A DNA stretch of 64,000 bases, taken from contig CAYTGR010000014.1 of NCBI GenBank assembly GCA_964437445.1, positions 3,812 through 67,811 of the forward strand. Direction: 5' to 3'. Below the pieces are notes generated by a model. It did not search any database. It was not told the DNA's origin and was given only the letters and a program-made list of their open reading frames with translations. The stretch is from an uncultured Anaerolineales bacterium. GTDB lineage: Bacteria; Chloroflexota; Anaerolineae; B4-G1; SLSP01. The position numbers and the translations under genes are program-made. This document shows, in pieces, positions 8,488 through 64,000 of this stretch; position 1 is the first letter of the stretch, and each line of letters begins with the position of its first letter.

Positions 8488-8497
8488 TAGGGCATGT

Positions 8498-21906: not shown

Positions 21907-21935
21907 GCGCAGAAAGTTAAAGGCAGAGGGATTTT

Positions 21936-35564: not shown

Positions 35565-35942
35565 CTACTTGCCACTTGAGTCTCTGAAGAAAGAGGTCAC
35601 CTGGAGAGCAAAATCTTTGACATTAATGGGCTTAGAGATAAAACCAGTACAACCGTAGGCCTCGGCCATCTGGCGAGCGGTATCGGGCGGCCAGGCGGTC
35701 ACCACCACCACCGGCACATCGGTGAGCTCCGGCAACATTTTGATCAGGGCGGCCACCGTCTGCCCATCTAAATCGGGGAGTCCCATGTCCAGCAGAATTA
35801 AGTCCGGCCTTTCTTGCATCGCCATTTGCAGGCCGGCGTTGGCCTCTGTCGCATGGAGCATACGATATCCCAAAATTTCCAGTAAGCGGATAATCAAACG
35901 GGCATCGTAGGGGTTATCTTCCATCAAGAGAATAGTTTTCAT
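35565..35942 (-). CDS. Single-domain response regulator (REC only)
   Basis: DD…D phospho-acceptor (LLDMGLPDLDG), T, and K (ISKP). Confidence 0.85.
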   Translation of the reverse strand: MKTILLMEDNPYDARLIIRLLEILGYRMLHATEANAGLQMAMQERPDLILLDMGLPDLDGQTVAALIKMLPELTDVPVVVVTAWPPDTARQMAEAYGCTGFISKPINVKDFALQVTSFFRDSSGK

Positions 35943-36023
35943 GCCCTATCCTTCGTCAAGTGAAAAAAAGCCAAGAGGTCGGTTCGCCCATACCGGTCCA
36001 GCAATCCACGCGGCGACCGGGGT

Positions 36024-36401
36024 TCACTGAGGAGGCGCCAGGTAGAATCCTACCTTGGCCAATAATTCCATGGCCTGGACCGGTTTGGACAGGTAATCAT
36101 CGCAGCCAGCGGCCAGAAAACGTTCCCGGTCCCCCACCATGGCCGAAGCGGTCAACGCAATGACCAATGTCTGGCGCAGGTCGGGGTCGCTCTTAATGCG
36201 CGAAACCACCTCAATCCCGTCCATGCCTGGTAACCCAATATCCAACAAGACCAGAGCCGGCCGGAGCTCACGCACCATGGTCAAACCGGTCGGCCCATCT
36301 TCAGCCTCATGGAGCACATAGCCGCGCGACGAGAGGATTTTACGGACCAATCGGCGGTTATGGTAATTATCTTCGATATACAAAATGTTATCGTCTGGCA
36401 T
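36024..36401 (-). CDS. Single-domain response regulator (REC only)
   Basis: LLDIGLPGMDG…LTASA…YLSKP. Confidence 0.85.
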   Translation of the reverse strand: MPDDNILYIEDNYHNRRLVRKILSSRGYVLHEAEDGPTGLTMVRELRPALVLLDIGLPGMDGIEVVSRIKSDPDLRQTLVIALTASAMVGDRERFLAAGCDDYLSKPVQAMELLAKVGFYLAPPQ

Positions 36402-36406
36402 TAAGC

Positions 36407-38488
36407 CTACTCCGACAATAAATTTTCCACATAGGTCAACAGGTGGCTGCGATCCAGGGTCGTCTTGTCCCAGACCGATTCCACCTGTGTCCCGAGCTGC
36501 CCCCGCGCCTCCGGGGTGAGTTCCTTGCTCGTGATGACGATCACCGGAATGTTCCGGCTCTGCTCACGAGTTCGCAGGGCCGCCAACAGTTGCTCGCCGC
36601 TCATATCCGGCAACAACAAATCCAGCAGGATCAAATCGGGCAGCGTCTGCTCAACCAGTTCCAACGCCTCTTTGCCGGAGTAGGCCTCCAACACCTCAAA
36701 CCGCTGGCGGGACTCCAGCAACCGTCGCATGAGCCGCGACTCCCATACATTATCCTCAACTACCAGAATATGCAAACGGCGGGTCCGGCCAAAAGCAGCC
36801 ACCGGTCGCTCCTCGGCCGGATGAGGTGAGGTCAGGTGTTGGAAGGCAGCGTCGTCGTCGCCCAGCAATTCGGAAACATGCCGGACCAGTTCACGCCCGC
36901 TAAAGCTGCCCTTCTGCCAGACCGAATCGCTATAATCCCTCAAATAATCGGCCTCCTCCGACGTCAAGGTCTTGGCCGAAATGACAATCACGGGAATATC
37001 CCGGGTGCGCTCATCGGCCTTGAGCGCTGAAAGGACCGCCATCCCGTCCATGTCCGGCAGGGTGAGGTCCAGCAGGACCAGGCCGGGCCGGCGCTGGCGC
37101 ACGAGGTCAATTCCATCCACCCCCGTATAGGCTTCCAAGACGCGGTAGTTTTTGTAGCTTTGCAAGAGCCGGCGGATCAGCCGATTGTCGTGAGGATTGT
37201 CGTCAATCACCACTAACGTGGTAATCTGTTCATCCAGCTGCTCCAGGGCCGCCGCCAACCCCTCTACCGGGCGGCGACCGGCCGGGGCCTGGGGCGCTTC
37301 CAGGCTAACAAAGTAGCGATCCTCCAGAGCATGTTTTTCGGCGCTGAAGGTATGGCCGGAGCAGTTAATCACGACCCGTTCCCCAGGCCGAATGTGGCCC
37401 AGCGCCAGCAGCTTGTCCAGGCCGGCAAAGGCCACGCTGGCCGCCGGTTCCATGGAGAACCCCTCCAGGCGCGCAATCCGGCGCATCGTGCGAAAAGCGT
37501 CGCCATCACTGACCGCCACCATCGCCCCACCGTACTGATCCACCATCCGCTTCAGCAGCGAATACGAGAAACCGGGGTTACCGGTCGCCAACACGGTGAT
37601 GAGGCTATCGGGTTGCACCGGCGTCGCTTTATCCAGCCCCTGTTCCCAGGCGCGGACCATTGGCGCACAACCTTCGGTTTGCACGATCCCCAGGTGGGGA
37701 ACGCGGTCGGTCAAGCCGGCGGCGTGCAGCTCTATGAAGCCCTTGAGCACCCCCAGCGGGCCAATCCCGCCGGAGACAGCCTGAATGTACCAGTCGGGGG
37801 CCTGCCAGCCCAGCTGCTCGGCAATCTCAAAAGCGATCGTCTTCATACTTTCCTTGCACGGGATCGCCTTCGCCCCACCATCCATCAGGAGATGATGACG
37901 GGCGGCAAAATCGGCCGCGATTTCTTTAGCCTGATCGTAGGTGCCGGTAATTTTGACGACCTCGGCCCCGTAGAGCGCCAGTTCACGCATTTTCTCCACC
38001 GGCACGCTGCTGGTGAGAAAAACCCACAGTTTGATGCCCGCGCGGGCACAGTAAGCGGCGTAAGCCGCCGCCGCATTGCCGGTCGAGGCCAGCACTAATT
38101 CCTTGATCCCCTGAGTGCGCAGGGCGGTGACGGCGACCGAGGCTTGCCGGTCCTTGAAAGAGCCGGTCGGCTGCTGGCGTTCGTCCTTGATCCAGAGTTC
38201 CCCGTGGCCGCTTTCGCGCTCCAATCCTTCCGCGCGGGTCAACGGCGTCCACCCCTCCCCCAGCGAGAGCACGGAAATGTCATCGGGAAAGGGCAGCAGC
38301 TCGGTGTAACGCCAGAGCGTCGTGGCCCGCTGCTTGACCAGGGCCGGCCAGTCGGCCGGCAAGGCCGCGCAGTCATAGACGGCATCCAGCCAGGGGCTGC
38401 CACAACCAGCGCACTTGGTGATGAAGGGACTGGCAGCCATCAGCTGGCCACATTCCAGGCACCGCACCGCGGTTAAAAGCGTACTCAT
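36407..38488 (-). CDS. Threonine-synthase-like PLP enzyme fused to two C-terminal REC receiver domains
   Basis: An N-terminal zinc ribbon (CLECG…CAGCG) precedes the PLP-lysine motif TGSFKDRQASV, a Gly-rich loop (SGGIGPLG) and a tryptophan-synthase-beta-like fold of ~400 aa. Two complete REC domains follow (VVIDDNPHDNRL…LLDLTLPDMDG…VISAK and LVVEDNVWESRL…LLDLLLPDMSG…VITSK). Confidence 0.75.
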   Translation of the reverse strand: MSTLLTAVRCLECGQLMAASPFITKCAGCGSPWLDAVYDCAALPADWPALVKQRATTLWRYTELLPFPDDISVLSLGEGWTPLTRAEGLERESGHGELWIKDERQQPTGSFKDRQASVAVTALRTQGIKELVLASTGNAAAAYAAYCARAGIKLWVFLTSSVPVEKMRELALYGAEVVKITGTYDQAKEIAADFAARHHLLMDGGAKAIPCKESMKTIAFEIAEQLGWQAPDWYIQAVSGGIGPLGVLKGFIELHAAGLTDRVPHLGIVQTEGCAPMVRAWEQGLDKATPVQPDSLITVLATGNPGFSYSLLKRMVDQYGGAMVAVSDGDAFRTMRRIARLEGFSMEPAASVAFAGLDKLLALGHIRPGERVVINCSGHTFSAEKHALEDRYFVSLEAPQAPAGRRPVEGLAAALEQLDEQITTLVVIDDNPHDNRLIRRLLQSYKNYRVLEAYTGVDGIDLVRQRRPGLVLLDLTLPDMDGMAVLSALKADERTRDIPVIVISAKTLTSEEADYLRDYSDSVWQKGSFSGRELVRHVSELLGDDDAAFQHLTSPHPAEERPVAAFGRTRRLHILVVEDNVWESRLMRRLLESRQRFEVLEAYSGKEALELVEQTLPDLILLDLLLPDMSGEQLLAALRTREQSRNIPVIVITSKELTPEARGQLGTQVESVWDKTTLDRSHLLTYVENLLSE

Positions 38489-38695
38489 TGGTTATACCTC
38501 GTGGCGTCACTCTCTTTTGGGACGATTGCTTGCCTGCCCCGAAAAACCCGGCCCTGAACACGCAGCAGGCGCGGAGGTTTCATTTAAACAACAACCAACA
38601 ACCAATCTCTGCGTATTCAGCGCGCTCGGCGATAAAAAGGCTCTTGCAGCAAAATCAGCTCATGTCGTGCGCCGGCAACGACCTGAACGCTGCAA

Positions 38696-38745
38696 CGCAC
38701 TTCCGGTGGCCCCTACCCACGTTATTCTTCGCCACCGGAAGTGCG
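38696..38745. promoter_or_regulatory. Perfect 15-bp inverted repeat CGCACTTCCGGTGGC-N20-GCCACCGGAAGTGCG
   Basis: Read from the sequence. It lies in the 288-bp spacer between the REC-cyclase gene and the ThrC-REC-REC gene and has no flanking U-tract on either strand. Confidence 0.5.
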
Positions 38746-38775
38746 CCGCCCCCCAACAACCAGCGTCCACCGCCC

Positions 38776-39852
38776 CTATTCCGCGTAACCCGGCTTGAGG
38801 CCCAACACCTCATAGGCCCGGATCGGCGTCGTGATCCCTTTGCCGTACAAGGGTAACACTTCCCTGGCCTCGGCAACCGCTGTAACCGCTTCATAAGTCG
38901 GGCTATCCACCAGGATCTGACCGGCTTCGGCGTTTTCCTGCAACCGCTTGGCCAGATTGGGAATATGGCCGATCACGGTATAATCCATAAACTGATCCGA
39001 CCCAATGTTGCCCACCACGGCTTCGCCAGTGCCGATCCCCACCCCCAACCCCAGCTCTCGCATCAGCGGCCGCTCCCGGCAGAGTTGGGCAAAGCGCTGT
39101 TGCATGACGCAGGCCGTAATCACTGCCTGTTGGGCACCATTGACCAGGATCAGCGGGGCCCCGTAGACCGCCATGATGGCATCCCCCAGATATTTATCCA
39201 ACATGCCGTGATGCTCAAAGACCACCGGCGTCAACCGGTTGAAAACGTAATTGAGCATTTCAATGACCTCACCCGCCTCACGGGTCTCCGAAAAGTGGGT
39301 AAAGCCCCGAATATCGGCAAAGAGCACACTGACCGTGCAGCTCCGTCCCCCCAGTTGCAGGTTCTGTTCGGGATTGCTGAGGATCTCCAGGGCGACGTCG
39401 CGGGAGACGTACCGCGTCAGCACCCGCTCCAGCAGCGCGTTTTTGACCTGCAGTTCGTCGGTCAGCTGCTTGATCCGCAACAACGAACGGACCCGGGCCA
39501 ACAGCTCCACGGCGTTGAACGGCTTAACCAAAAAGTCGTCAGCTCCGGCCTCCAGGCCCCGGACCTTGTCCTCCATTTCCCGGAGCGCGGTCAACATCAG
39601 GACGGGGATGGCCCGGCTCTCCGGTGCACTCCGCAGAGCGCGGGCCACCTCATAACCATCCAATCCCGGCATCATCACATCCAGCACCACCAGGTCAGGT
39701 AGATTCTGGTGGACCATCTCCAACGCCTGCAGCCCATCGGACGCCGTGAGCACGACATAGCCCTGCCGGGAAAGCAACGATTCCAGCAACCGGATGTTGC
39801 GTTCGTTATCGTCCACTACCAGGACCTGGGCATGTCCATCTGGGTTGGGCAT
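38776..39852 (-). CDS. Response regulator with class III adenylate/guanylate cyclase output domain
   Basis: A REC domain (VLVVDDNERNIRLL…VLDVMMPGLDG) precedes a CYCc domain (VLFADIRGFT…KYLGDAIMAVYGAP…GIGTGEAVVGNIGS). Confidence 0.85.
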   Translation of the reverse strand: MPNPDGHAQVLVVDDNERNIRLLESLLSRQGYVVLTASDGLQALEMVHQNLPDLVVLDVMMPGLDGYEVARALRSAPESRAIPVLMLTALREMEDKVRGLEAGADDFLVKPFNAVELLARVRSLLRIKQLTDELQVKNALLERVLTRYVSRDVALEILSNPEQNLQLGGRSCTVSVLFADIRGFTHFSETREAGEVIEMLNYVFNRLTPVVFEHHGMLDKYLGDAIMAVYGAPLILVNGAQQAVITACVMQQRFAQLCRERPLMRELGLGVGIGTGEAVVGNIGSDQFMDYTVIGHIPNLAKRLQENAEAGQILVDSPTYEAVTAVAEAREVLPLYGKGITTPIRAYEVLGLKPGYAE

Positions 39853-39879
39853 AATTTGTCCGTATCCCTCATCCTGAGG

Positions 39880-42800: not shown

Positions 42801-45800
42801 ACCGCTGAATTCTCTCTTCCGCCTGCTTGCGCTCGGTGATGTCGCGGACCAGAGCGAGGGCCTGATCGGTGCCGACGCGGCTCATACGGGCCTCGTAACT
42901 GTGCATGGTCTCGCCGAGGGGAGCCTCGTATTCATAAGTGACCGGTTCGCCGGTCGCCAGTACCTGCTTCAGGTACTTCAACGTTGGCTCCGCAATCTGC
43001 GGCGGCAGGACCGTCCCCAGGGGCTTGCCCAGGAAGAGCTCGGGCGGCACCAGCAGTTCCTGCCCGGCCTCGGCCTTGAAGTCCTGGAAGATGCCCGCGG
43101 CATCAAAGACGAACATCATATCAGGAACCGTCTGCAACAACGCCCGGTTACGGGCGGCACTCGCCTCGGTAGCAACGTAGAGACTGGCATTCTGGAAGGC
43201 GGTGGCGATCTGCCCGGCCAGCGCCCGGAAGACGTCCAGGTCCGCCTCGGTGAAGTAACCCGGCACATCGTGCTGCACGTCAAACACCCCGATCACCTGC
43301 CCACCCGCGATGGCCGGCACCGCCACCTCCGACCGCGTCTCCGGCAACAACGGGTTCGGCAGGAAGTCCGGCGCGGCCGTCACGTCCTCCACCACCACGA
43401 CCTCCTGCGTCCGTGCGGCGCGCGCCACCAGGCTCTTCTCCGCCTCCAGCGGGATGCTGTGCCCCCGCTCCAGCATGATCCGTCCGGGTTCCCCGTACCC
43501 GGCCCGCAACTTCAGCGCCTCGCCCTCCAGCGTGTAGACGTGCACGTAGTACAACCCAAACCGCTCTTTGATCAGCGGGATCACCGCCTGCAACAACTCG
43601 TCCGGGTCCAGGATGGACTGCACCCGTGCTGCAATCTCCGCCGCTACACTCAACCGTTGCGCAAACCGCTCCCGCTCCGCTTCCGCTTGCTTGCGCTCGG
43701 TAATGTCAAAGAAAGCGGAAAGCAGCACTGGTTCCCCCTCCAGTTCAAACGGATCAATGGAGAGGTCGCTCCAGAACATCCGGCCATCATCCAACCGCTT
43801 GAGCCGTAGCTCGTAGTGACTCAGCCGCCCCTCGGTCTGGACTGTACTCACTACCTGTTGCCGCTCCGCCGGATCATAGTAGAGATCCACCGTCGTCTGG
43901 CCGAGCATGTCGGCCGCAGACTTACCGAACATCACACTGAATTGTTCGTTGGCGTAGAGGATCGTCCCATCAGCCACGCGGCTCACCACCAGACTTACCG
44001 GCACGGTCCCCAACACCTGCCGCTGCCGTGCCTCCGCCTCCCGGAGCGCCTGCTCGGCCCGCTTGCGCTCCGTGACGTCTTCAAAGGTGCCATCCAGATA
44101 CTCGGGTTGGCCCGCAGCATCGTAAACCAGGCGGCCACTGAGCGCAATGGTGATCACGCTACCATCGGCACGGCGGAACAGTACTTCAAAGTCGGTGACC
44201 GGACCCTGGGCCAGCGTCTCCAACAGCCGCTGGCGTTCCTGGGGATCAACATAGAGGTTGGACAACCCAACCTTATTGATCGCCGCCACCGAATCAAAGC
44301 CGAGAATGCGTAACATGGCCGGGTTGGCGGCCACTACCTGCCCGGCCGGGGTCGTGCGGAAGATGCCGACCAGCGCGCTATTCACCAACTCCTGGAATCT
44401 ACTCGCCGCCTCCGCCGCCCGCTCCCGCAATTGCGCCGCTTGCAGCGCGACCGCCCCCTCTTCTACCAACGCCCGATACAACGCCAGTTTGGCCTCATCA
44501 AAATACCCCGGAATGGCCGCGGCCAGAGAGAGCACTCCCAACCATTCCTCGCCCGCGGTAATCGGCAACAGCGCCAGGCTGGCCGAGCCCTGCTGCACCA
44601 GCAACTGCCGCGTCGCCTCATCCAAATGCGGATCGGTGGTCGCATCGGCAATCACAAAAGACCGATCCCGCCCGACCGCTCTGAGCAACGGCAGTTGTTT
44701 GGCCGTGAAGCGCGTACCCAAGGGAATGACCGCCGAAAGGCCGCTCTCCGCCCCTGCTGCCCGCACCAACACCGTGGTCAGCTCTTCCGCCGTAGCGTCT
44801 ATCAGGTGCAGCGTCACCCGTGCCGCCGGGAAAATGGTGGCCTGTTCCGCCAGCGTATCCAACACGGCCGCCTCGGTCTGGGCTCCCGCCAGGGCCTGGC
44901 TGATGCGCAGCCGCAACTGCGCTTCGGTGTACAACTGCGCGTTCTGGAAAGCGGTGGCGATCTGCCCGGCCAGCGCCCGGAAGACGTCCAGGTCCGCCTC
45001 GGTGAAGTAACCCGGCACATCGTGCTGCACGTCAAACACCCCGATCACCTGCCCACCCGCGATGGCCGGCACCGCCACCTCCGACCGCGTCTCCGGCAAC
45101 AACGGGTTCGGCAGGAAGTCCGGCGCGGCCGTCACGTCCTCCACCACCACGACCTCCTGCGTCCGTGCGGCGCGCGCCACCAGGCTCTTCTCCGCCTCCA
45201 GCGGGATGCTGTGCCCCCGCTCCAGCATGATCCGTCCGGGTTCCCCGTACCCGGCCCGCAACTTCAGCGCCTCGCCCTCCAGCGTGTAGACGTGCACGTA
45301 GTACAACCCAAACCGCTCTTTGATCAGCGGGATCACCGCCTGCAACAACTCGTCCGGGTCCAGGATGGACTGCACCCGCGCTGCGATCTCCGCCGCTACA
45401 CTTAATCGCTGCGTGTACCGTTCACGCTCCTCATCCGCCTGCTTGCGTTGGATGACCTGCCACAGCCCGGTCGCCAGCAACGTCAATTGCTGCACATCGC
45501 TGTCCGTATAGTCTTCTGGCTTGTTGCCTACCCCCACCACCATGACGATGTGTTCCCCGTCAAAGATCGGGGCATTCATGTGCCGCTTGACTTCTACGTG
45601 CCCCTGAGGATAGCCGCGCTTCCAGGGGTTGGGCTCGTCGTAATCGTTAGTGATAATGGCTCGCCGCTGGCGTATCGCCTCTCCCCACAGCCCGGTCGTG
45701 ACTACTGGATATACAATCGGCTTATCAATGATCTTGCACTGCGCCATGGCTCCACCCGACCAGGCATGCATGGTCATCACCGATTCATCGGCATTAACAA

Positions 45801-48366: not shown

Positions 48367-48492
48367 ATAGATCCACTCCTTTGCTTCTACTGGCGAAAGC
48401 AGTAAACGTCCTGGTAAAATGATGAGTTCAAACTATTTTCTATCATACAACAAATCAGCGGCCTTGTCCGTTCCAGTTCCGTTAAGGCACAA

Positions 48493-49602: not shown

Positions 49603-49749
49603 TGTGTTTCCTCATGTAACTCACGCCAATACAGCCCTTGAAGCCAGGGCGACCTCTTACTATTTTAAAACAAAAACCCGCCCTAACGGTGATGCAGACT
49701 GTTAGGGCCGGGTTGAATTGGAGCAGGGAATCGTTAGGGTTTGGTTGGC

Positions 49750-50496: not shown

Positions 50497-50550
50497 AGCA
50501 TCAGCCACCTACGTTCCTCCTTGCTTGTTAAGTTTGTTAAGGTAGTAACG

Positions 50551-50590
50551 GGTGAGCAGTGAATAGTGAGCAGTGAGTGGTGAGTAGTTT
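50551..50590. repeat. GTGAGCAGTGAATAGTGAGC-family repeat, copy 2, with an inverted partial copy at 50688-50709
   Basis: Read from the sequence. Confidence 0.7.
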
Positions 50591-50803
50591 GGAGGTGGCG
50601 AACTCTGTACTGCTCATAGTTCTCCTCATAAAATATAGAAACCAGTTAAGGGGTGAGCAGAAAGCAACCGGTAGAAATTCCTGTTTCCTGCTCACCGCTC
50701 ACGGCTCACATTTTCATCCCACGGCTGGTAAACGCCCGTTCATGGGGAATTCCCCTGAAAGCCAGATTTAACACAAAAACGCGGAGGCCGCAGAGTCCTC
50801 TTC

Positions 50804-50838
50804 TTCGCCATTCGCCATTCGCCATTCGCTATTCGCTA
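50804..50838. repeat. Heptamer tandem repeat (TTCGCCA x3, TTCGCTA x2) immediately 3' of the MEDS-HK stop
   Basis: Read from the sequence. Confidence 0.8.
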
Positions 50839-50839
50839 T

Positions 50840-55348: not shown

Positions 55349-55420
55349 ATGACCCTCAGAAATTCAACCACGACTGTCCTGAAAAAACTCACCGCCGAGG
55401 TCGTGGAGGACACAAAGTTT

Positions 55421-56182
55421 TCAAGCGAGTTCACTGATCAAGGTCAACGTCCGGCGTCCCGGAATCTGGCTGAAGGTTGCCGCCTGGCTGACCGCCCAGA
55501 GCGCGCCGTGCGGATCGGTCAGCCGGGTGCCGGCGACGGCGCTCAATCCATATTCCAACAACAACGGCGTCAAGGGAGCGGTGCCCCCCAACATGACGGC
55601 AAAAGCGTCAGGCCGCCAGAGCGGCCACAACCCCTCAAACGTGTGGTTGAGCAGAGCCGTCCCGGTGATGGCGACTACATCGGCCTGGGGCAGGATCACC
55701 GCCGCCTGGGAGGCGGGGAGGTCGCCCTCGCGGGGGTGGAGTTCCAGCACCCAGAGCTCCGCCGCCAGCTCGCGCAGGCGCGGCACAAAGGGGAAATGGC
55801 CCACCACGGCGATGCGGCGGCCGGCCCCCCGCTCGGCGATCACATCAGCCGCGTTGACCGCAAGGCAGGCCCGCTCGTCCACGTCCAACAGGGCATTGAC
55901 GGTCGCCATGCCGACACTGGCTTCCACGGGACTCTCCGACAAAAGGAGCGCCGCCAGGTCCGTGACCGGCAGCTCTTGCAGCCGCCCCGCCGCCGTGACG
56001 GGCAGGCGGCCGCCCCAATGGTGGCTGCCGGGATCATCCAGCTGGGTGGCCGAGATACCGGCCCGAAGTTCACCGTTGAGTTCCACAGCCACCACCGTGG
56101 AATGCGTCCCGATGCGTACGTCCACCGCTTGCGCCCCGGCGGCCGCTCCGGCCACCTGCGCCAAAAGTGCTTCCAGAACCAT
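55421..56182 (-). CDS. DUF364/DUF4213-like (putative metal-chelation Rossmann-like) protein
   Basis: 253 aa; weak family-level resemblance only. Confidence 0.4.
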   Translation of the reverse strand: MVLEALLAQVAGAAAGAQAVDVRIGTHSTVVAVELNGELRAGISATQLDDPGSHHWGGRLPVTAAGRLQELPVTDLAALLLSESPVEASVGMATVNALLDVDERACLAVNAADVIAERGAGRRIAVVGHFPFVPRLRELAAELWVLELHPREGDLPASQAAVILPQADVVAITGTALLNHTFEGLWPLWRPDAFAVMLGGTAPLTPLLLEYGLSAVAGTRLTDPHGALWAVSQAATFSQIPGRRTLTLISELA

Positions 56183-56270
56183 ACCGTGCTTCTCCTTGAA
56201 AAAAGTAGTAATTTCTCCGAAGATAACGGGGCGTTGAATCGCCAGCCTTTGCTGCCCCGCTTTGGTTCTT

Positions 56271-56310
56271 TGATTCGTTGATTCCCCGATTCGCCGATTC
56301 TCTGATTCAT
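56271..56310. repeat. Octamer tandem repeat ([TC]GATTCNN x5), followed by a TATAAT box at 56314-56319
   Basis: Read from the sequence. Confidence 0.7.
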
Positions 56311-56326
56311 ATTATAATCTGACTCC

Positions 56327-56908
56327 ATGAAACTGCTACTGACACGCCATGGACAATCACGCTGGCAGGTAGAAGGCGACAGCGCCGGCCCGAACGCCCC
56401 CCTGACCGCTTTGGGGCGCTTACAGGCCCACCGGCTGGGCGCCTACCTCCAGCACCACGAACAGATAGAGCGCATCGTCGCCAGCCCACTGCTGCGCGCC
56501 CAACAGACCGCCACCATCATCGCCACCTACCTGGCGCTACCGGTGTTCACCGATCCCGACCTGCGCGAATATGATGACTGGGAAGCCGGCTATGCCCCCC
56601 GTCCCACCTCCCCCTGGGATCTGACGCCGGCGGAGGAGCAGGCCGAGGTCTATTGTGCCTTCCGCGCGCGGGTGGTCGGAGCCGTGCAACGGGCGCTGGC
56701 CGCTGAGAACGGCAGCGACCCAACCGTGCTGATCGTCGCCCACGGCGGCACCCTGGGAACCCTGCTGCGCCATCTCTTCGGCGCGGCCACGCTGCGCCTG
56801 TGGACTTCCAACACCGGGCTCCATGCCCTGGACTGGAATGGTGAATTCTGGTCGGCCCACTACCTCAACTGGCAGGAGCACCTGCCGTTTTACTTGCGGA
56901 GTTCGTGA
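56327..56908 (+). CDS. Histidine phosphatase superfamily protein (phosphoglycerate-mutase-like)
   Basis: The N-terminal catalytic LTRHGQS…W motif is present, with a second His in VAHGGTL. Confidence 0.75.
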   Translation: MKLLLTRHGQSRWQVEGDSAGPNAPLTALGRLQAHRLGAYLQHHEQIERIVASPLLRAQQTATIIATYLALPVFTDPDLREYDDWEAGYAPRPTSPWDLTPAEEQAEVYCAFRARVVGAVQRALAAENGSDPTVLIVAHGGTLGTLLRHLFGAATLRLWTSNTGLHALDWNGEFWSAHYLNWQEHLPFYLRSS

Positions 56909-56911
56909 GTC

Positions 56912-57745
56912 ATGGACCGGCCGACGTCTCCCCCGCCGTTTCCCCGGGCCTGGGCCTGGAGCGGCCTGCTCCTGGCACTGATCGCCGTCGCGGTTTTTGT
57001 TTTCGCACTGCCGCCCTCATTCTTGGGCCACCTGGATTACATAGGCGCGGCGGTCTGCCACCGCCTGCCGGAACACTCCTTCTTCCTCGGCGGCGAGCAG
57101 CTCCCCCTCTGTCAACGTTGCACAGGGACCTTCCCTGGGGCATTGACCGGGCTGCTGCTCCAGTGGGGTGTGCTGCGGCGTCGGCGGGCCGCGCGCTTCC
57201 CGGCGCTCTGGGTTTGGGGCGTGGTGATCCTCTGTGTCGGCCTCTTCGGGCTGGATGGGATCAATTCTTACACCACCCTGCTCACCGGCAACGCCCGCGG
57301 CCTGCTGGGGTATGCCCCCCAGCCCTGGCTGCGCCTGTTGACCGGCACGCTGACGGGGCTTTCCATGAGCATCGTGCTGGTGCCGGCCTTTAACCAGACG
57401 TTGTGGCGCGACAACGACCCAGAGGTGCGCACTCTGCGCAATGCGGGCGATCTGGCCGTGCTGGTGGGAGTGGAGCTGGCCCAGGCGGCGGTGATCTACT
57501 CCTTAGAACCCTGGCTGCTCTACCCCATCGCGCTTTACAGTACGCTGGGGGTGGTCGCGATGTTCGTTCTACTGGGCGCGATGGTTTTTGTGATGGCCCT
57601 GGGACGCGATGCCAGCTGCGCCGGTTGGCGTGAGGCGGCCGTCCCGTTCCTGTGGGGCGTCGTCTTTGCCGCGCTGCTCATCGGCGGGATGGACTTCTTC
57701 CGGCTCTGGCTGACCGGGACGCTGGTCGGGGTGCCGGGGCTATAA
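56912..57745 (+). CDS. DUF2085 family membrane protein
   Basis: The CHRLPEHSF…G..LPLCQRCTG motif is followed by several TM helices. Confidence 0.55.
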   Translation: MDRPTSPPPFPRAWAWSGLLLALIAVAVFVFALPPSFLGHLDYIGAAVCHRLPEHSFFLGGEQLPLCQRCTGTFPGALTGLLLQWGVLRRRRAARFPALWVWGVVILCVGLFGLDGINSYTTLLTGNARGLLGYAPQPWLRLLTGTLTGLSMSIVLVPAFNQTLWRDNDPEVRTLRNAGDLAVLVGVELAQAAVIYSLEPWLLYPIALYSTLGVVAMFVLLGAMVFVMALGRDASCAGWREAAVPFLWGVVFAALLIGGMDFFRLWLTGTLVGVPGL

Positions 57746-58159
57746 CGGCGACGGCCGGGTGGCAGCCGCAACCTTGACCTTCAGGCAGCCACCCATCCTA
57801 CGAGCAAACTCTTTTCACTACCGCGGGCGCTGAGTTTTCCTGGCGCTCTACCTCCTAACACCGAACGGACAGGCGCGGTGCCGCGAGTAGAATAGCCGGC
57901 TCCCACAACCGTGCCACTGCCAGGCGGGTTACGTTCCCACTACAAGATCGCACAAGTGCGTGTATAATAAAAGTATGCCCGTTTCAAACTGGGTAACCCA
58001 GATCAGCCAGTCACAGAGTTTACCGGCCAACCGGTAAGGGTTTCCCCGACACAGGGATAACCCCGGCGGCTGGAGACCACTGATTGACGAGGGGCCCATC
58101 CCATAGCGTGCGCCGGGTTGACCAGCGCAAGGTCGCCAGCATAAGGTGAGGAACCGTCC

Positions 58160-61100
58160 ATGAGAGATCTGGCCATCACGCTCCTCCTGATTGAAGATGA
58201 CCTGGCGGATGCCCGGTTGATTCGCACGCTGCTGGCGGAAGTCAACGCGGCCGAGCCCGCGCTGCTGCACACCAAGCTTCACGAAGCCTCCACCCTTGCG
58301 GCCGGGCTGGAACGACTGGCCGCCGGCGACATCCAGCTGACCTTGCTGGATTTGACCTTGCCCGACAGCGACGGCTCCGCAGCTTTCACCCAGGTCTTGC
58401 AGAGCTACCCCAACGTCCCCTTGATTGTGCTGACCGGTGTGACCGATGACGCCCTGGCTGTGTCCGCCGTTCGCGCCGGGGCCCAGGACTATCTGAGCAA
58501 AACCGGGCTCAGTGGGCCACTACTGGCACGGGCCATCCGTTATGCCGTGGAACGCCAGCACATCCTAACCGAGCTCCTCCAGAGCGAGCAACGCTTCCGT
58601 GCCCTGGTGGAAAACGTCTCCGACATTATCCTGGTACTGAACCCCGACCGGACCATCCGCTATGCCAGCCCGGCGGTGGAACGCCTCACCGGCCACCCGC
58701 CGGCAACGTGGGAAGGCCAGGACCTGCTCAGGATCCTCGCCCCGGAAGAGCAGGAACCGTTGGCCCTGCTCTTCAACCACCTCCTTCAGCACCCCGGTCT
58801 AACGCTGCCGGTCTCGGCACGGTTGGCACACGGCAGCACCTGGCGAACGGTAGAAGGGGTGGCCCACAACCTGCTGGCCGATCCGGCAGTGGACGGAATT
58901 ATCCTGAGCCTGCACGACGTCACCCGGCGCGTGCAGGCTGAAGTGGCCCTGGCCCACTCCCGCGATTTTTATCTGACCCTGTTTAACCATCTGCCCACCC
59001 TGATCTGGCGCTCCGGTCCCGATGCCAAGTGCACCTACGTCAACCAGACCGCCCTGGCCTTCACCGGCCGTTCCTCAGAGGCAGTGCGGGGCGACGGGTG
59101 GTTGAGCGACCTGCATCCTCAAGATCAGCAACGCTGCCTGGAGACCTACCTGGAAGCTTTCCTGGCCCGCCAGCCCTACACCATAGAATACCGCCTCCGC
59201 CGTCACGACGGCCAATACCGCCATGTCCTGGAGGTGGGACAGCCCTACGCCGACATGGACGGTCTCTTTGCCGGCTACCTCCGCTCGGCCTACGACATTA
59301 CCGAACGTTACCAGGCGGAAGAGCTGCAAGCCTTCCTGGCGGCCATCGTCACCTCTTCGGACAACGCCATCATCGGCAAAACGCTGGCGGGGGAAATTCG
59401 CAGCTGGAACGCCGGTGCTGAACGCATCTACGGTTACTCAGCCGCCGAAGCCATCGGCCGTCCGGTGACCATGCTCCTCGCCCCCGACCGGCCCGCGGAG
59501 GTCCAGCAAATTCTGGCCCGGATCCGCCAGGGGGAACGGGTAGAACACTATGAAACAGTTCGCCGCCGCAAGGACGGCACGGCCGTCATCGTTTCCCTGA
59601 CGACCTCGCCCATCTACAACGCGGCCGGGGAAATTGTCGGCGCTTCCACCATCGCGCACGACATCACCGCCCGCCGGCAAATGGAGCAGGCCCTGCACGA
59701 GAGCGAGGCCAGATTTCGCAGCATCGTAGAACAACTGCACGACGGTATCGTCATTACCAACCCGGAAGGGCGCATTTTAGAGTGGAACCCTGGCGAAGAA
59801 CGGCTCACCGGTATCCCCAGAGCCGAGGCCATCGGACGCTATATCTGGGAGCTGCAATGGCAGCTCGCCACCGAAGAACGCCGGGCCATCCTCACCTATG
59901 AAAGTTACGTGGCAAAGGTCAAAGAGTTCTACACCCAGGAGCAGGTCACCTGGCCTACCCAGCCCCAGGAAGCCGTCATCCGCCACCGTGATGGCAGCCA
60001 GCGCATTATCCAAACTCTGATTTTCCCCTTGCTCACCGCCCAGGGATTGGGTGTGGGCAGTGTCAGCCATGACATCACCGCGCAAAAAAAGGCCGAACAG
60101 GCCCTGCGGGAATCTGAGGAGCTCTACCGCAAGCTGGTCAGCACCTCGCCGGATGGCATCGTCCTCACCGATTTAGAGGGTGCTATCCTCTATCTTTCGC
60201 CGCGTACGCTGGCACTCTTCAACGCGACGCAGGCGGAAGGGGCCCTGGGCCATAATGTCCTGGAATGGATAAGCCCGGAAGATCGTCCCCGGGCGGCGGC
60301 CGATCTCCAAGCCGTCAGCCAGACCCCCCGGGTGGGCCAGACATACACGTTGGTGCGGCGGGATGGCAGCCGGTTCTATGGCGAGATCACCGCCGCCGCC
60401 GTGCTGGATGCCACCGGCCGCCCCTACCGGATCATCTCCACCGTCCGCGACGTCACCGAACGGGTGCACAGGGAGGCCGCCCTCCGCGCCAGCGAGGCCC
60501 AATTGCGCAGCATGATTGACCAATCCCACGACAGTATCATCCTGTGCGACGAGCAAGGCTTGATTGTGGAATGGAACCGGGCCCAGGAACAATTGAGCGG
60601 TCTGCCGCGCGCTCGCGCTCTCGGCCGGTATGCCTGGGACGTGATGTTTGAAATGGCATCCTCTGAAATGCGAACGCCTGAGGCTTACACCCGGCTCAAA
60701 GCTGATTTCATGGCCACCCTGGCAACCGGCCGGCCCCCCTGGTCCGAACCGCTCCATGAGCAGCTCATCCAGCGGCCCGACGGCAGCCGGCGCAGCGCAG
60801 AACTCCGCGTCTTTCCCATTCGTACCGACAGCGGATTCATGATATGCAGCATTAGCCGGGACATCACCGAACGCAAAAGGGCCGAGGAGGCGTGGCGTGA
60901 AAGCGAAGCCCGTTTCCGCAGCCTGTTTGAACATTCTCCCCTGGCGTTGGGACAATACGACGCCGAGGGCCGGCTGCTGGCGATGAATCCGGCCGGGCTA
61001 CGCCTGTTCGGGGCGACCGATCTGGCCGCGGCCCAGGCGACGCTGCCCTTGGCCGCCCTCAACGTCCCGCCGGCAGCGCTGCAACAGGGCCAACCGGTCC

Positions 61101-61630
61101 GGTATGAAATGGCGCTTGAGATAGGCCAGGCGCAGGGACCGGGTCTGCCAACGGCCCCCGGTAAGCTCAGCCGTCTGGATGTTCAAATCACTCCCCTCAC
61201 CGGGCCAGACCGCGGCTATCTGGTGCAAATCCAGGACGTCACCGAGCAACGCGCCGTTGAGGAGCAGGTCTGGTTCCAGGCGCACCTGCTGGATAAGGTA
61301 CAGGAGGCCATTATCGCTACCGACCTGCAGGGCCGGATCATCTACTGGAATCGTGCCACAGAAACACTGTACGGCTGGTCGGCGGCCGAGCTGTTGCACC
61401 GGGACGTGGCCGAGTTGATCGTGCCGCACCACGAGACGGCGAGGCTGCGCGCCGTGTTGAAACAGCTGGCCCAGGGCGGCACCTGGTCAGGAGAAATCCA
61501 CATCCGGCGCAAGGAGGGCAGCCCGGTGTTAGTGTTACTCACGGCCGGCCCGCTGGACAACGAAGCCGGGCAGCAGATCGGTATCATCAGCCTCGCCACC
61601 GACATCAGTAAGTACCCCAGGGAGGAGTAG
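58160..61630 (+). CDS. Response regulator with REC domain followed by an array of ~8 PAS/PAC domains, no recognisable output domain
   Basis: REC is LLLIEDDLADARL…LLDLTLPDSDG…LTGV…YLSKT. It is followed by repeated PAS/PAC signatures (DIT[AE]R[KR]Q[AM]E). The ORF ends without a kinase, GGDEF or HTH domain. Confidence 0.8.
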   Translation: MRDLAITLLLIEDDLADARLIRTLLAEVNAAEPALLHTKLHEASTLAAGLERLAAGDIQLTLLDLTLPDSDGSAAFTQVLQSYPNVPLIVLTGVTDDALAVSAVRAGAQDYLSKTGLSGPLLARAIRYAVERQHILTELLQSEQRFRALVENVSDIILVLNPDRTIRYASPAVERLTGHPPATWEGQDLLRILAPEEQEPLALLFNHLLQHPGLTLPVSARLAHGSTWRTVEGVAHNLLADPAVDGIILSLHDVTRRVQAEVALAHSRDFYLTLFNHLPTLIWRSGPDAKCTYVNQTALAFTGRSSEAVRGDGWLSDLHPQDQQRCLETYLEAFLARQPYTIEYRLRRHDGQYRHVLEVGQPYADMDGLFAGYLRSAYDITERYQAEELQAFLAAIVTSSDNAIIGKTLAGEIRSWNAGAERIYGYSAAEAIGRPVTMLLAPDRPAEVQQILARIRQGERVEHYETVRRRKDGTAVIVSLTTSPIYNAAGEIVGASTIAHDITARRQMEQALHESEARFRSIVEQLHDGIVITNPEGRILEWNPGEERLTGIPRAEAIGRYIWELQWQLATEERRAILTYESYVAKVKEFYTQEQVTWPTQPQEAVIRHRDGSQRIIQTLIFPLLTAQGLGVGSVSHDITAQKKAEQALRESEELYRKLVSTSPDGIVLTDLEGAILYLSPRTLALFNATQAEGALGHNVLEWISPEDRPRAAADLQAVSQTPRVGQTYTLVRRDGSRFYGEITAAAVLDATGRPYRIISTVRDVTERVHREAALRASEAQLRSMIDQSHDSIILCDEQGLIVEWNRAQEQLSGLPRARALGRYAWDVMFEMASSEMRTPEAYTRLKADFMATLATGRPPWSEPLHEQLIQRPDGSRRSAELRVFPIRTDSGFMICSISRDITERKRAEEAWRESEARFRSLFEHSPLALGQYDAEGRLLAMNPAGLRLFGATDLAAAQATLPLAALNVPPAALQQGQPVRYEMALEIGQAQGPGLPTAPGKLSRLDVQITPLTGPDRGYLVQIQDVTEQRAVEEQVWFQAHLLDKVQEAIIATDLQGRIIYWNRATETLYGWSAAELLHRDVAELIVPHHETARLRAVLKQLAQGGTWSGEIHIRRKEGSPVLVLLTAGPLDNEAGQQIGIISLATDISKYPREE

Positions 61631-61801
61631 AAGCAGCACAGCAGGGTATCTAAAGGTGGCTGCCGAGGGCGCCCAAAATCAGGCCCGACGCCGGGAGCCG
61701 CCCGCCCCATATCCAACGCCTGGGGAGTATCCCGGCCGTTGGACATGCAGACCCTCACACACCCGTCCAGGGGAGCCTCAAGTCAGGATGAGGAGTCGCC
61801 T

Positions 61802-64000
61802 ATGAGCCAGGAAATCGCGGATCAGCAATCGGACGAAGCGCAGCACGCGCAAGCGTTGGCTGCCAGCGAAGGCCGCTTCCGGATGCTGGCCGAGAGCAGC
61901 CAGGACGGGGTCCTCATCACTGACGGTGAGGGCTGCATCCTCTACGCCAACCCGGCGGCCGCGGCCCTGCTCGGCCATCCTCAGGCCGAACTGTTGGGAC
62001 AACCGTGCGGTTTTCCCCTCACCCCAGCACCGAGCGGCCCACTCTCGCTCCCGCCAGGCAACGGCCGGCTCCAGCTGGTTGATGTCCACCTCAGCGAAAC
62101 CGGTTGGAACAACGCGCCGGCCTGGCTGGTTCTGCTGCGCCCCCGGCCGCCCCTGCCCATCTCGGTTGCGCCGGAGCAGCACTTTGCCCCACCGCCGCCG
62201 TCAGTGGAACCGGCAACCTTGCGCTTCACCGACATTGTAAACACGGCCCGGCTCCAACAGCTGATGGGACTCTTCTACCAGGCCACACAAATTCCCATCG
62301 GGATCATTGATGTAGACGGCACCGTCCTGGTTGGCTCCGGCTGGCAGGAGATCTGCACACGTTTCCACCGTGTTCATCCGGTGACGGCAGCCCGGTGCCG
62401 GGAGAGCGATGCCTACATCCAATCCCACCTGAACGCAGGGAAATACGTCCAGTACAAATGTCAAAACGGCCTCTGGGATATAGCCATTCCCATCATAGTG
62501 GAAGGCCGGCAGCTGGCCACTCTGTTTGTTGGCCAGTTCTTCTATGCCGACGAACAGCCCGATGAAGCGTTCTTCCGTGCCCAGGCAGAGCAATTCGGCT
62601 TTGACGTGGAGGCCTATCTGGCCGCGCTCAAACGGATTCGGGTTTTCACCCGCGAGCAAATTCACCACATCATGGAGTACTACGCCGAGTTTGCACGCCT
62701 GCTCGCCGAACTGGGCCATAAGAATCTCCTGTTGGCCCGCGACATGGCCCGGCGCCAGCAGGCCGAACTGGCGCTGTCGGAGACTGAACAGCGCTTTCGC
62801 GCCCTCATTGAGCACGCCACCGATATCATCATCGTCATCGGGCCAGACCGGCAGATCCATTACGTGAGTCCCTCGGTGAAATGGATTCTGGGCTACGACC
62901 CCGACCAGGCGACTCAGTCCAATTGGTTGGCTATCCTGGCCCCCGAGGAAATAGCCAAAATCCGCCTGGTCGCCGCCCAAGCGCTCCAGCACCCGGAATT
63001 GTCTTTCCCCATTGAAGTACAGGTGCGCCACCGCGACGGCTCCTGGCGCGTGCTGGAAGGAACCGTGCAAAGCCGCTTGGAAGACCCGGTAGTGAACGGC
63101 ACCATCGTCATCCTCAACGACGCGACCCACCATCGGCGGACCGAGGCCGCGCTGAGCCGGGCCCGCGACTTCTATCTCTCATTATTGGATAAGTTCCCCA
63201 GTCCGATCTGGCGCACCACGCCCAACGGCAAGGTCAATTACGTCAATCAGGCCTGGATGGAGCTCACCGGCTACTCGCTTGAACAGGCCCGGGGCGACGG
63301 CTGGCTGGAAGCCCTCCACCCTGAGGACCAGCAATACTGCCTGGAAACCTACCTGGAAGCCTTTCACGCCCGGCAGCCCATTGAATTAGAATATCGCCTG
63401 CGTCGCCACGATGGCACTTACCGCCGGGTGTTGGACCTGGCCCACCCTTTCACCGACCTGGAAGGGCAATTTGCCGGCTACCTGGGCATCATCTACGACC
63501 TGACCGAGCGTTACGAGGCCGGGCGGGCACTCCAGGAGAGCCGGGATCTGCTAAACAGCATCTTCAGGGCCGCGCCGGTGGGGATCGGGTTGACCGCCGA
63601 CCGGGTGATACTGGAAGCGAATGACCGGCTCTGTGCGATGGTGGGCTATACCCGCGAGGAACTGGTGGGAAAGAGCGCCCGCCTGCTCTATCCCACCCAG
63701 GAAGAATTTGAGTGGGTCGGCACGGAAAAATACCGGCAGATCGCCGAACGGGGTACTGGCACCGTGGAAACCCGTTGGATTACCCAGGGAGGACAGCTGC
63801 TGAACGTCCTGCTGAGCTCAACGCCACTGGATCCGCACGATCTAAGCAAAGGAGTTACCTTCACCGCGTTAGACATCACCGCGCGCAAACAGACGGAAGC
63901 GGCACTCCAGGCCAGCGAGGCCCAATATCGCCTGCTGGCAGAATCCATCAACGACGTAGTCAGTCTGGTAGACCTGGAAACGACACTCTTATACATGAGT
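61802..64000 (+). CDS. PAS–PocR–multi-PAS sensor protein, 3'-truncated by the window end (likely a sensor kinase)
   Basis: Open reading frame from the ATG at 61802 to the window end with no stop; I translated it manually. It is absent from the ORF track because it has no in-window stop. A PocR-like sensory domain (IGIIDVDGTVL…ICTRF…CRESD…YKCQNGLWDIAIPI…GQFF) is flanked by PAS domains. One of these is a close paralogue of a PAS domain in the 58160-61630 protein (…IWR[ST].P[DN][AG]K..YVNQ…GDGWL..LHP[QE]DQQ.CLETYLEAF.ARQP…EYRLRRHDG.YR.VL…). Confidence 0.7.
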   Translation, partial: MSQEIADQQSDEAQHAQALAASEGRFRMLAESSQDGVLITDGEGCILYANPAAAALLGHPQAELLGQPCGFPLTPAPSGPLSLPPGNGRLQLVDVHLSETGWNNAPAWLVLLRPRPPLPISVAPEQHFAPPPPSVEPATLRFTDIVNTARLQQLMGLFYQATQIPIGIIDVDGTVLVGSGWQEICTRFHRVHPVTAARCRESDAYIQSHLNAGKYVQYKCQNGLWDIAIPIIVEGRQLATLFVGQFFYADEQPDEAFFRAQAEQFGFDVEAYLAALKRIRVFTREQIHHIMEYYAEFARLLAELGHKNLLLARDMARRQQAELALSETEQRFRALIEHATDIIIVIGPDRQIHYVSPSVKWILGYDPDQATQSNWLAILAPEEIAKIRLVAAQALQHPELSFPIEVQVRHRDGSWRVLEGTVQSRLEDPVVNGTIVILNDATHHRRTEAALSRARDFYLSLLDKFPSPIWRTTPNGKVNYVNQAWMELTGYSLEQARGDGWLEALHPEDQQYCLETYLEAFHARQPIELEYRLRRHDGTYRRVLDLAHPFTDLEGQFAGYLGIIYDLTERYEAGRALQESRDLLNSIFRAAPVGIGLTADRVILEANDRLCAMVGYTREELVGKSARLLYPTQEEFEWVGTEKYRQIAERGTGTVETRWITQGGQLLNVLLSSTPLDPHDLSKGVTFTALDITARKQTEAALQASEAQYRLLAESINDVVSLVDLETTLLYMS

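Follow-up and report, generated by a model that had tools for sequence, protein, structure and literature searches.

The 64,000-nucleotide stretch of an Anaerolineales contig that we analysed (CAYTGR010000014.1; hereafter referred to as the window) contains a dense cluster of signal-transduction genes. Genes encoding receiver (REC), histidine kinase, PAS or GAF domains account for 24,450 of the 28,436 bases (86%) between positions 35,565 and 64,000. Hidden Markov models (HMMs) of REC, kinase-core, PAS and GAF domains matched no open reading frame (ORF) in the first 35.5 kb of the window; all matches were located between 35.5 and 64 kb. The minus strand carries eight consecutive signalling genes and the plus strand carries two, with the switch at ∼56.2 kb, and the ten genes that run from 56182 to 34589 are all co-directional and separated by gaps of 5–331 bp. 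A preliminary description of this DNA had recognized the dense signalling cluster, and the Pfam domain calls and the gene coverage bear this out. Every domain that it named was also called correctly; its gene order, however, was wrong for the three small genes, which had been placed in front of the PocR gene. In fact the DUF364, His_Phos_1 and DUF2085 genes separate the MEDS kinase gene from the REC-PAS gene, and the PocR gene follows the latter directly. The range given for the cluster, which began at position 35565, omitted a tandem GNAT acetyltransferase gene located just beyond this edge, which likewise belongs to one of the conserved gene units. On balance, we consider it probable that this dense core-chromosome cluster is a mosaic of three separately inherited units (denoted A, B and C) and not a single relay, and that in unit B one kinase serves several receivers and a pyridoxal phosphate (PLP) enzyme. 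The features are listed in the following table.

Table. Genes and sequence features of the signalling cluster, with the evidence for each assignment (positions in the window)
Feature	Position	Strand	Evidence and assignment
Tandem GNAT acetyltransferase, 296 residues	34589–35479	−	Pfam Acetyltransf_1, residues 69–148; AlphaFold2; Foldseek; last gene of unit B
Single-domain receiver RECa, 125 residues	35565–35942	−	Pfam Response_reg 6.7e-19; unit B
Single-domain receiver RECb, 125 residues	36024–36401	−	Pfam Response_reg 1.1e-26; unit B
PALP (ThrC-like)-REC-REC fusion, 693 residues	36407–38488	−	Pfam PALP 1.1e-69 and two Response_reg; signature gene of unit B
REC-class III adenylate cyclase, 358 residues	38776–39852	−	Pfam Response_reg and Guanylate_cyc; accessory to unit B
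PAS/GAF HisKA-HATPase_c kinase, 2828 residues	39880–48366	−	Pfam, domain map; unit B
Segment coding for GAF no. 5 of the 2828-residue kinase	43187–43670	−	Repeat search, offset scan
Segment coding for GAF no. 3 of the 2828-residue kinase, twin of 43187–43670	44939–45420	−	Repeat search, offset scan
REC/pseudo-REC/REC protein, 369 residues	48493–49602	−	Three Pfam Response_reg stretches; last gene of unit A
OmpR/PhoB-family response regulator, 252 residues	49750–50508	−	Pfam Response_reg and Trans_reg_C; unit A
MEDS-PAS-GAF HisKA-HATPase_c kinase, 1502 residues	50840–55348	−	Pfam, domain map; unit A
DUF4213/DUF364 protein, non-signalling	55421–56182	−	Pfam
His_Phos_1 protein (histidine-phosphatase superfamily branch 1), 193 residues	56327–56908	+	Pfam 5e-36
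DUF2085 membrane protein, 277 residues, four hydrophobic segments	56912–57745	+	Pfam
REC and eight-PAS protein, 1156 residues	58160–61630	+	Pfam, domain map; unit C
PAS-PocR-3xPAS N-terminal part of kinase	61802–64000 (truncated by window end)	+	Pfam PocR 8e-52; unit C

Pfam and a custom REC HMM identified ten REC domains in the cluster, in agreement with the number given in the preliminary description. E. coli CheY served as the alignment reference for their catalytic residues (acidic pair, Asp57, Thr/Ser87 and Lys109). Acidic pair, acceptor Asp, Thr/Ser and Lys are complete in nine of the ten domains; the exception is the middle REC of the triple-REC protein (residues 127–249), in which Gly, Asn and Arg occupy the positions of the acceptor Asp, the Thr and the Lys. 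Degeneracy of the receivers, a concern attached to the original proposal, is therefore confined to this one domain. RECa displays the Glu-Asp pair, the acceptor Asp, the Thr and a Lys followed by Pro, RECb has the full set of catalytic residues, and among homologues of the single-REC genes the acceptor Asp is kept in 89 of 90. In the 2828- and the 1502-residue kinases all of the H, N, G1, F and G2 boxes are intact, and, as had been stated, neither kinase is hybrid: neither Pfam Response_reg nor the custom HMM detects a REC domain in either of them. The types of their H-boxes differ, SHELRTPL in the 2828-residue kinase (full H-box FLANMSHELRTPLN) versus AHEINNPL in the MEDS kinase. Judged by sequence, the cluster thus contains the elements that define classical two-component systems, namely kinases with a HisKA H-box and an HATPase_c domain and receivers with an intact acceptor Asp.

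A strict phosphorelay requires a histidine phosphotransfer (HPt) or Spo0B-type module. At E ≤ 0.01, Pfam Hpt had no match in any scanned protein of the cluster, and no ORF of at least 70 residues containing an HxxKG motif was found between 34 and 64 kb. The large proteins are fully tiled by PAS, GAF and kinase domains, and the intergenic gaps do not exceed 414 bp. Because there is no HPt, no unassigned protein space and no gap long enough for a further gene, a multistep His-Asp-His-Asp phosphorelay is not encoded in the cluster. The proposed 'branched phosphorelay or phosphate-sink' network accordingly loses its phosphorelay; a kinase with several stand-alone receivers is nevertheless the layout expected of a branched or sink pathway.

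The conservation of unit B was assessed by a scan with the fusion protein of one genome per species, from which the best 80 loci of 572 matching stretches were taken; all of these are full length and all are from Anaerolineae. Loci with enough flanking sequence were considered informative (69 for the upstream kinase and cyclase, 76 for the downstream REC and 68 for the GNAT). A same-strand kinase gene is present within 2 kb upstream of the fusion gene in 59 of the 69 informative loci, and a single-domain REC gene, which in the window (RECb) starts 5 bp downstream of the fusion gene, follows directly in 71 of 76. The GNAT gene is found downstream in 36 of 68 loci, and the REC-cyclase gene is inserted between kinase and fusion gene in 14 of 69, which are among those nearest to the window (57–71% identity). 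The kinase cores adjoining the fusion gene are 47–69% identical to that of the 2828-residue kinase, compared with 23–48% for other kinases of the same loci, and the corresponding kinases range in length from 465 to >2940 residues. All-against-all clustering of 900 ORFs from 81 loci revealed no conserved neighbours beyond the kinase, the REC, the GNAT and the REC-cyclase; the remaining neighbours differ from one lineage to another, and among them are PA14/SH3 proteins, membrane proteins, an acyl-CoA dehydrogenase and a NarL-type pair. The MEDS domain, DUF364, His_Phos_1, DUF2085 and PocR were never seen beside the unit-B core in the 80 loci. An OmpR C-terminal domain was found there once (locus L007), and multi-REC genes lie upstream of the kinase gene in ∼4 loci. 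From its gene order, unit B is apparently an undescribed operon that is conserved class-wide in Anaerolineae.

A sub-lineage of these loci (L033, L035, L037, L041 and L045) has a fusion gene without a PAS/GAF kinase gene upstream. A single REC gene and an acyl-CoA dehydrogenase-like gene are located upstream in L037, L041 and L045, and a NarL-type regulator gene on the opposite strand downstream in L033, L035 and L037. A gene for a GAF-HisKA_3-type kinase is found downstream in L033, L035, L037 and L041; the sequence of L045 ends just past the fusion gene. The kinase partner of the fusion protein seems to be exchangeable.

Unit A consists of the MEDS kinase (MEDS, two PAS, GAF, five PAS, HisKA and HATPase_c), the OmpR-type regulator, of which the REC (Pfam 4.2e-27) has a complete catalytic set and the Trans_reg_C domain is clearly recognized (1.8e-18), and the triple-REC protein. 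A metagenome scan with the latter yielded ∼15 loci in which genes for a MEDS kinase, an OmpR-type regulator and a REC protein are grouped (50–66% identity) and no unit-B genes are nearby; homologues of the first domain of the triple-REC protein follow the MEDS-kinase/OmpR pairs in these loci, and the OmpR regulators beside MEDS kinases are 55–61% identical to that of the window. Because the MEDS/OmpR/REC set recurs without unit B beside it, unit A appears to be inherited independently of unit B. One such locus (L100, positions 8141–10000) encodes a MEDS kinase orthologue of 619 residues, which is too short for the PAS/GAF array, and has convergent genes after the REC gene. In loci of the L100 type, the counterpart of the triple-REC protein is apparently a single REC.

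In unit C, the REC-8xPAS protein has an intact REC catalytic set, and neither Pfam nor the domain map revealed a recognisable output domain. The gene product encoded at the end of the window had been described as a PocR-PAS sensor. Its PocR and PAS domains were confirmed by Pfam, and its homologues indicate that it is more than a sensor, namely a third histidine kinase: two proteins of 1060 residues (P0392 and P0393) that are 93% and 88% identical to it both contain an HATPase_c domain, and the domain scan of P0392 places HisKA at residues 844–907 and HATPase_c at 958–1059. The REC-PAS and PocR kinase genes are paired in the closest relative (locus L113), where they overlap by 4 bp. Of the small genes that precede unit C, the DUF4213/DUF364 gene had no tblastn match in related unit A or unit B loci. 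Looked up by exact sequence, the REC-PAS protein gave no match, and the His_Phos_1 protein matched only a contig of 1.3 kb; the downstream end of the cluster was therefore traced via the homologue P0392. The His_Phos_1 protein gave only sub-threshold NCBIfam matches, to CobC and SixA (the latter N-terminal, 45.9 bits versus a cutoff of 74.5); it is conceivable that it acts as a phosphohistidine phosphatase for the neighbouring kinases.

The division into units is also weakly reflected in the receivers. REC domains of the same unit are 43% (the two receivers of the fusion protein), 45% (RECb and the cyclase REC) and 36% identical (the first REC of the triple-REC protein and that of the OmpR regulator), and identities across units are 20–31%; by this measure the REC domains tend weakly to group by unit. 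We regard the cluster as three juxtaposed units because units A and B are hardly ever neighbours in the other genomes examined, because their REC domains group weakly by unit and because the H-box types of their kinases differ. The view of the preliminary description that the cluster forms one network converging on cyclic AMP (cAMP), one transcription factor and a PLP enzyme does not agree with this separate inheritance.

The signature protein of unit B is composed of a Zn-ribbon and ThrC-like fold-type II PLP domain (residues 1–∼400), followed by REC1 (residues 418–547) and REC2 (residues 568–693); the linkers comprising residues 380–411 and 549–569 are predicted to be disordered. The best PDB matches of the PLP domain are threonine synthases (2zsj, 2d1f and 1uim, ∼1e-45), and Foldseek yielded TM-scores of 0.80–0.84 (normalised to the ThrC targets). 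All NCBIfam thrC cutoffs were missed (NF006050, 277 versus 303; TIGR00260, 160.8 versus 167.1; others far below), and the name given by NCBI to relatives is only 'pyridoxal-phosphate dependent enzyme'. Conservation was assessed in 74 family members. K112 (SFKDR), the STGN loop and the four Zn-ribbon Cys residues vary little or not at all, K112 itself being invariant, and both fused receivers keep the acceptor Asp in 74 of 74. All five solved ThrCs that were aligned contain N-S-x-N-P-x-R-x-E-G-Q-K-T, whereas all 74 family members have D-x-G-A-K-A-I-P-x-K-E-S-M-K-T instead; the residues of the N-S-x-N-P-x-R-x-E-G-Q motif presumably bind the substrate phosphate in T. thermophilus ThrC. Moreover, STGN-T is changed to STGN-A/K in 74 of 74 members, and GNAGN is changed to SGGIGP. 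In a search of 1.84 billion representative proteins, the D-x-G-A-K-A-I-P-x-K-E-S-M-K-T motif was confined to the fusion clade. Stand-alone relatives of 375–435 residues (43–52% identity) have a related version, and canonical ThrC appears only at ∼33–35% identity. In two genomes, a canonical ThrC gene with the sequences NSxNPFRLEGQKT, GNLGN and SFKDR lies within 10 kb of the fusion gene (L036, ∼13566–14532, minus strand; L047, ∼21338–22625, minus strand). Because the fusion protein scores below the cutoffs, has the motif replaced and coexists with canonical ThrC in these two genomes, its sequence argues that it is not the housekeeping threonine synthase.

Several relatives of the fusion protein differ in architecture. 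Proteins of ∼550–566 residues combine the ThrC-like domain with one REC (P0243, P0245, P0246 and P0248; 552–566 residues), and more distant ThrC-like proteins of ∼610–630 residues carry an extra domain (P0277, P0282, P0319 and others). The ThrC-like clade seems prone to regulatory fusions. In one locus (L028), a third kind of ThrC-like paralogue (38% identity), which lacks the canonical motif, is encoded directly downstream of the fusion gene.

The GNAT protein contains the acetyl-CoA motif RRRGTG in its N-terminal half. Its AlphaFold2 (AF2) model has a pLDDT of 90, and the top Foldseek matches are all tandem GNATs (3ddd, 2wpx, VipF 7wx5, MAB_4324, Eis and MshD; E-values of 1e-12 to 1e-14). 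It is hence a tandem GNAT of the MshD/Eis/VipF/clavulanate-pathway type with two GNAT folds per chain, and it forms an Anaerolineae family of its own (60–68% identity). Such a protein would fit the modification of a small-molecule amine. The closest structure to the REC-cyclase is that of P. aeruginosa CyaB (3r5g), with which the motifs FADIRGFT, DKYLGD, DYTVIG and NLAKRL align. All six class III catalytic residues are present (metal-binding Asp pair, Lys/Thr pair, Asn and Arg), the Lys/Thr pair specifying ATP, and the protein is thus predicted to be a class III adenylate cyclase.

The 2828-residue kinase comprises 11 PAS and seven GAF domains (18 sensor domains) in addition to HisKA and HATPase_c and is predicted to be soluble; no hydrophobic or transmembrane segments were found in this kinase or in the 1502-residue kinase. 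Five of its seven GAF domains are paralogues with 60–100% identity. GAF no. 3 and no. 5 are 100% identical at the protein level, and their coding segments were 99% identical in the repeat search and 100% identical over ∼480 nucleotides in the offset scan, with unrelated flanks. This suggests a recent intragenic duplication or gene conversion, or alternatively a collapse in metagenome assembly; the 2828-residue ORF is also present on an independent JGI contig (L001). Because five GAF domains are paralogues of this kind, counting the sensor domains exaggerates how many distinct inputs there are, which weakens the earlier assumption of multiple sensory inputs. Light as one of these inputs is unsupported, since no LOV motif (GxNCRFL), bilin-binding Cys-His or CxxCH motif was found in the PAS/GAF arrays. 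The region clearly illustrates the growth of sensor kinases by internal PAS/GAF duplication, with two GAF modules whose DNA sequences have not yet diverged. Compared with their far shorter orthologues, both large kinases are expanded by PAS/GAF domains (for the MEDS kinase, 619 residues in L100 versus 1502 in the window).

The word 'island', which had been applied to the region, describes the density of signalling genes and not their origin, because the base composition is not deviant (GC content of 0.56–0.64 within the cluster versus 0.58–0.68 elsewhere in the window), no tRNA genes were found and the flanks are core chromosome. Upstream of the cluster are genes for AOR, MiaA, GroEL, FeoAB, DtxR, RpoD, MetRS and HypF. 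Downstream, in the relative with the 93%-identical PocR kinase, are serine-pathway-like genes and the rplL-rplJ-rplA-rplK-nusG-secE cluster. The layout of the cluster is repeated in a relative at 93% identity, the genes of the window are also present on JGI and Logan metagenome contigs, and the close homologues all belong to Chloroflexota, class Anaerolineae. The cluster is part of the core chromosome and not a compositional, mobile or horizontally acquired island. A search of Rfam between 34 and 64 kb with a permissive E-value gave nothing, and the 287- and 331-bp gaps contain no known riboswitch or leader. At 31861–33864 on the plus strand, 1.7 kb from the two-component cluster, lies a further signalling gene; its product is a Ser/Thr protein kinase that has a single transmembrane segment and an N_BRCA1_IG-like domain. 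This gene adjoins a small ACT-domain gene (annotated as ACT_7 in L001) and a gene for a PCMT repair methyltransferase, and with 3 of 80 loci it shows no conserved association with unit B.

We infer the kinase–receiver partners, the control of the enzyme by phosphorylation and the products of the PLP enzyme and the GNAT from these observations. Unit A would be an ordinary system in which the MEDS/PAS/GAF kinase phosphorylates the OmpR-type transcription factor, with the multi-REC protein as an auxiliary. In unit B (48366 to 34589), the soluble kinase would integrate cytoplasmic signals and transfer phosphate directly from His to Asp of four or five receivers, without an HPt intermediate. Once phosphorylated, the tethered RECs would change the activity or the oligomeric state and assembly of the PLP enzyme, the substrate of which is probably other than O-phosphohomoserine. 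In the lineage of the window, phosphorylation may also switch cAMP synthesis by means of the inserted REC-adenylate cyclase. The free receivers would compete for phosphate as sinks or adaptors, as does DivK beside PleD, and the GNAT may acetylate the amino-acid product of the PLP enzyme. In unit C, the REC-8xPAS protein would be the partner of the PAS-PocR-PAS kinase. A more far-reaching version of the proposal for unit B is offered tentatively and stands well short of an even chance: it would be a class-wide device in which the kinase phosphorylates the tethered RECs to switch a ThrC-derived PLP enzyme of new specificity, the product of which, acetylated by the GNAT in many lineages, would be a regulatory or protective metabolite.

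Several observations weigh against the mosaic of units and the mechanism proposed for unit B. Scans for sigma-70 promoters and intrinsic terminators between 34 and 64 kb gave counts not clearly above shuffled background, with most of the hits intragenic; because of this, the predictions are unusable for defining operons, and these scans do not establish the transcription units. In L007 (Ca. Aquidulcis, a more distant relative at 71% identity), unit-A-like kinase, OmpR and multi-REC genes adjoin unit B again, so that a functional link between A and B in the lineage of the window is possible. As 10 of 69 loci have no kinase gene within 2 kb upstream on the same strand, the pairing of kinase and fusion protein is not obligatory, and no more than about half of the loci have the GNAT gene. 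Neither the usual aromatic switch residue nor the Lys-Pro motif is found in the two fused RECs (REC1 always has Lys-Gly), and from these residues their output mechanism may be atypical. Finally, AF2 modelled the single domains of the full-length fusion protein with confidence but gave no reliable packing between the REC and PLP domains (pTM of 0.59), and for this reason we draw no mechanistic inference from it.

If the whole 28 kb were instead one integrated, branched network, all kinases would cross-feed the ten receivers, and their signals would meet at the PLP enzyme, a single transcription factor and cAMP. The tight, mostly co-directional clustering, the excess of receivers over kinases (10 to 3), several of the receivers being output-less, and the renewed adjacency of units A and B in L007 are what such a network would predict. 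Adjacency alone, however, is no demonstration of cross-talk, and the fact that units A and B hardly ever adjoin in the other genomes examined, the SHELRTPL and AHEINNPL types of H-box, the lack of an HPt to link the branches and the weak grouping of the REC domains by unit all speak for the mosaic, so that we give the single network only a slim chance. Within unit B, the fusion could still be the housekeeping threonine synthase, equipped with acquired receivers through which the system would tune the synthesis of threonine. A precedent is plant ThrC, which is under allosteric control by S-adenosylmethionine via an added N-terminal region; in addition, genuine threonine synthases are the best matches of the fusion protein in both sequence and fold, family members are annotated at JGI as threonine synthase and the PLP-binding Lys is conserved. 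Against this, the protein misses all NCBIfam equivalog cutoffs and bears a generic NCBI name, the N-S-x-N-P-x-R-x-E-G-Q motif is replaced in every one of the 74 members and two genomes have a canonical ThrC gene within 10 kb of the fusion gene. We therefore rejected this candidate, which we hold to be very improbable; what had been called ThrC is ThrC-like and not demonstrably a threonine synthase.

The main rival to the enzymatic output proposed for unit B is that the ThrC-like PLP domain serves as an input. It would bind a metabolite of the amino-acid type and thereby gate the gain or loss of phosphate by the attached RECs, and the fusion protein would act as a metabolite-gated phosphate sink. 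Regulators of the GabR/MocR type use a PLP-dependent, aminotransferase-like fold as a sensor. The N-terminal location of the PLP domain, which is the usual position of a sensor, the C-terminal location of the RECs, the flexible linkers between the domains and the loss of the canonical substrate-phosphate site from a protein with an invariant PLP site would all be in line with sensing, and the free single-domain receivers of the operon could carry the real signal. The SFKDR, STGN, SGGIGP and GAKAIPxKESMKT loops are, however, as strongly conserved as in a working enzyme, and the frequent downstream acetyltransferase suggests a small-molecule product. Sequence data do not separate catalysis from binding; taking both sides into account, we consider a sensing role unlikely, with a modest chance of being correct.

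As a whole the cluster is ordinary, since Chloroflexota can be expected to have dense groups of two-component genes as well as giant PAS/GAF kinases; the novel part, as far as can be told from sequence, is unit B, in which a response regulator has a new enzymatic partner and is conserved class-wide. The combination of a ThrC-like PLP enzyme with two catalytically complete receivers was found in at least 80 species-level genomes and in >120 protein clusters, and the protein is named neither in NCBIfam nor in the searchable literature. If the enzyme is indeed controlled by phosphorylation, unit B would represent a new output class of response regulators, based on amino-acid-type chemistry rather than on transcription or cyclic nucleotides, and the first case of a fold-type II PLP enzyme that acts as the output of a response regulator. 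It would also offer a way into the signalling of a large class of bacteria, most of which are uncultured.

The multi-PAS/GAF, MEDS and PocR kinases and the REC-adenylate cyclases of cyanobacteria, myxobacteria and Chloroflexota are known architectures, of which units A and C, the giant kinase and the REC-cyclase are ordinary examples. The difference from known multi-PAS/GAF kinases is mainly one of scale, with 18 sensor domains in one kinase and five GAF domains that are recent paralogues. The PLP domain of the fusion shares with the threonine/cysteate synthase family (TIGR00260, NF006050 and TIGR03844) the fold, the SFKDR sequence, the STGN loop and an N-terminal Zn ribbon of the NF006050 type; unlike that family, it scores below every cutoff, displays a clade-specific motif and coexists with canonical ThrC.

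A CheY-like 'wing' is fused to the PLP enzyme in the AAT-fold lysine, ornithine and arginine decarboxylases LdcI, AdiA and SpeF (PMC8503589). In our literature search, this is the only well-described fusion of a PLP enzyme with a CheY-like receiver; within its incomplete coverage, the search gave no description of a fold-type II PLP enzyme, ThrC-like or other, that is fused to functional receivers, which is absence of evidence only. The decarboxylases are of fold type I and have a single, N-terminal REC-like domain, whereas the enzyme of unit B is of fold type II and has two complete, C-terminal RECs and an adjacent kinase gene. The decarboxylase wing serves oligomerization and not phosphorylation, and it is not known to have a functional acceptor site or a dedicated adjacent kinase gene.

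With the phosphate sinks of Sinorhizobium chemotaxis (CheY1/CheY2-CheA), unit B has in common that output-less single-domain receivers are encoded beside one kinase, and by analogy phosphate competition would be the simplest role for RECa and RECb. It differs in the lack of CheA, CheW and a methyl-accepting chemotaxis protein, its kinase being a HisKA-type sensor kinase. With the partners that we infer, the DivJ/PleC-DivK-PleD branch of Caulobacter is similar in that it has a non-hybrid kinase, a stand-alone receiver, a regulator of the type REC-REC-enzyme and direct His-to-Asp transfer with no HPt. The PleD model is among the best NCBIfam matches of the fused RECs and of the REC of the cyclase, at scores far below the cutoff. 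The enzyme of PleD, however, is a C-terminal GGDEF domain, whereas that of unit B is a fold-type II PLP domain located N-terminal to the receivers. Moreover, the second REC of PleD is a non-phosphorylated adaptor, whereas the fusion protein keeps the acceptor Asp in both receivers. Compared with the Caulobacter branch, unit B would finally stand out by up to five receivers per kinase and by a kinase with 18 cytoplasmic sensor domains.

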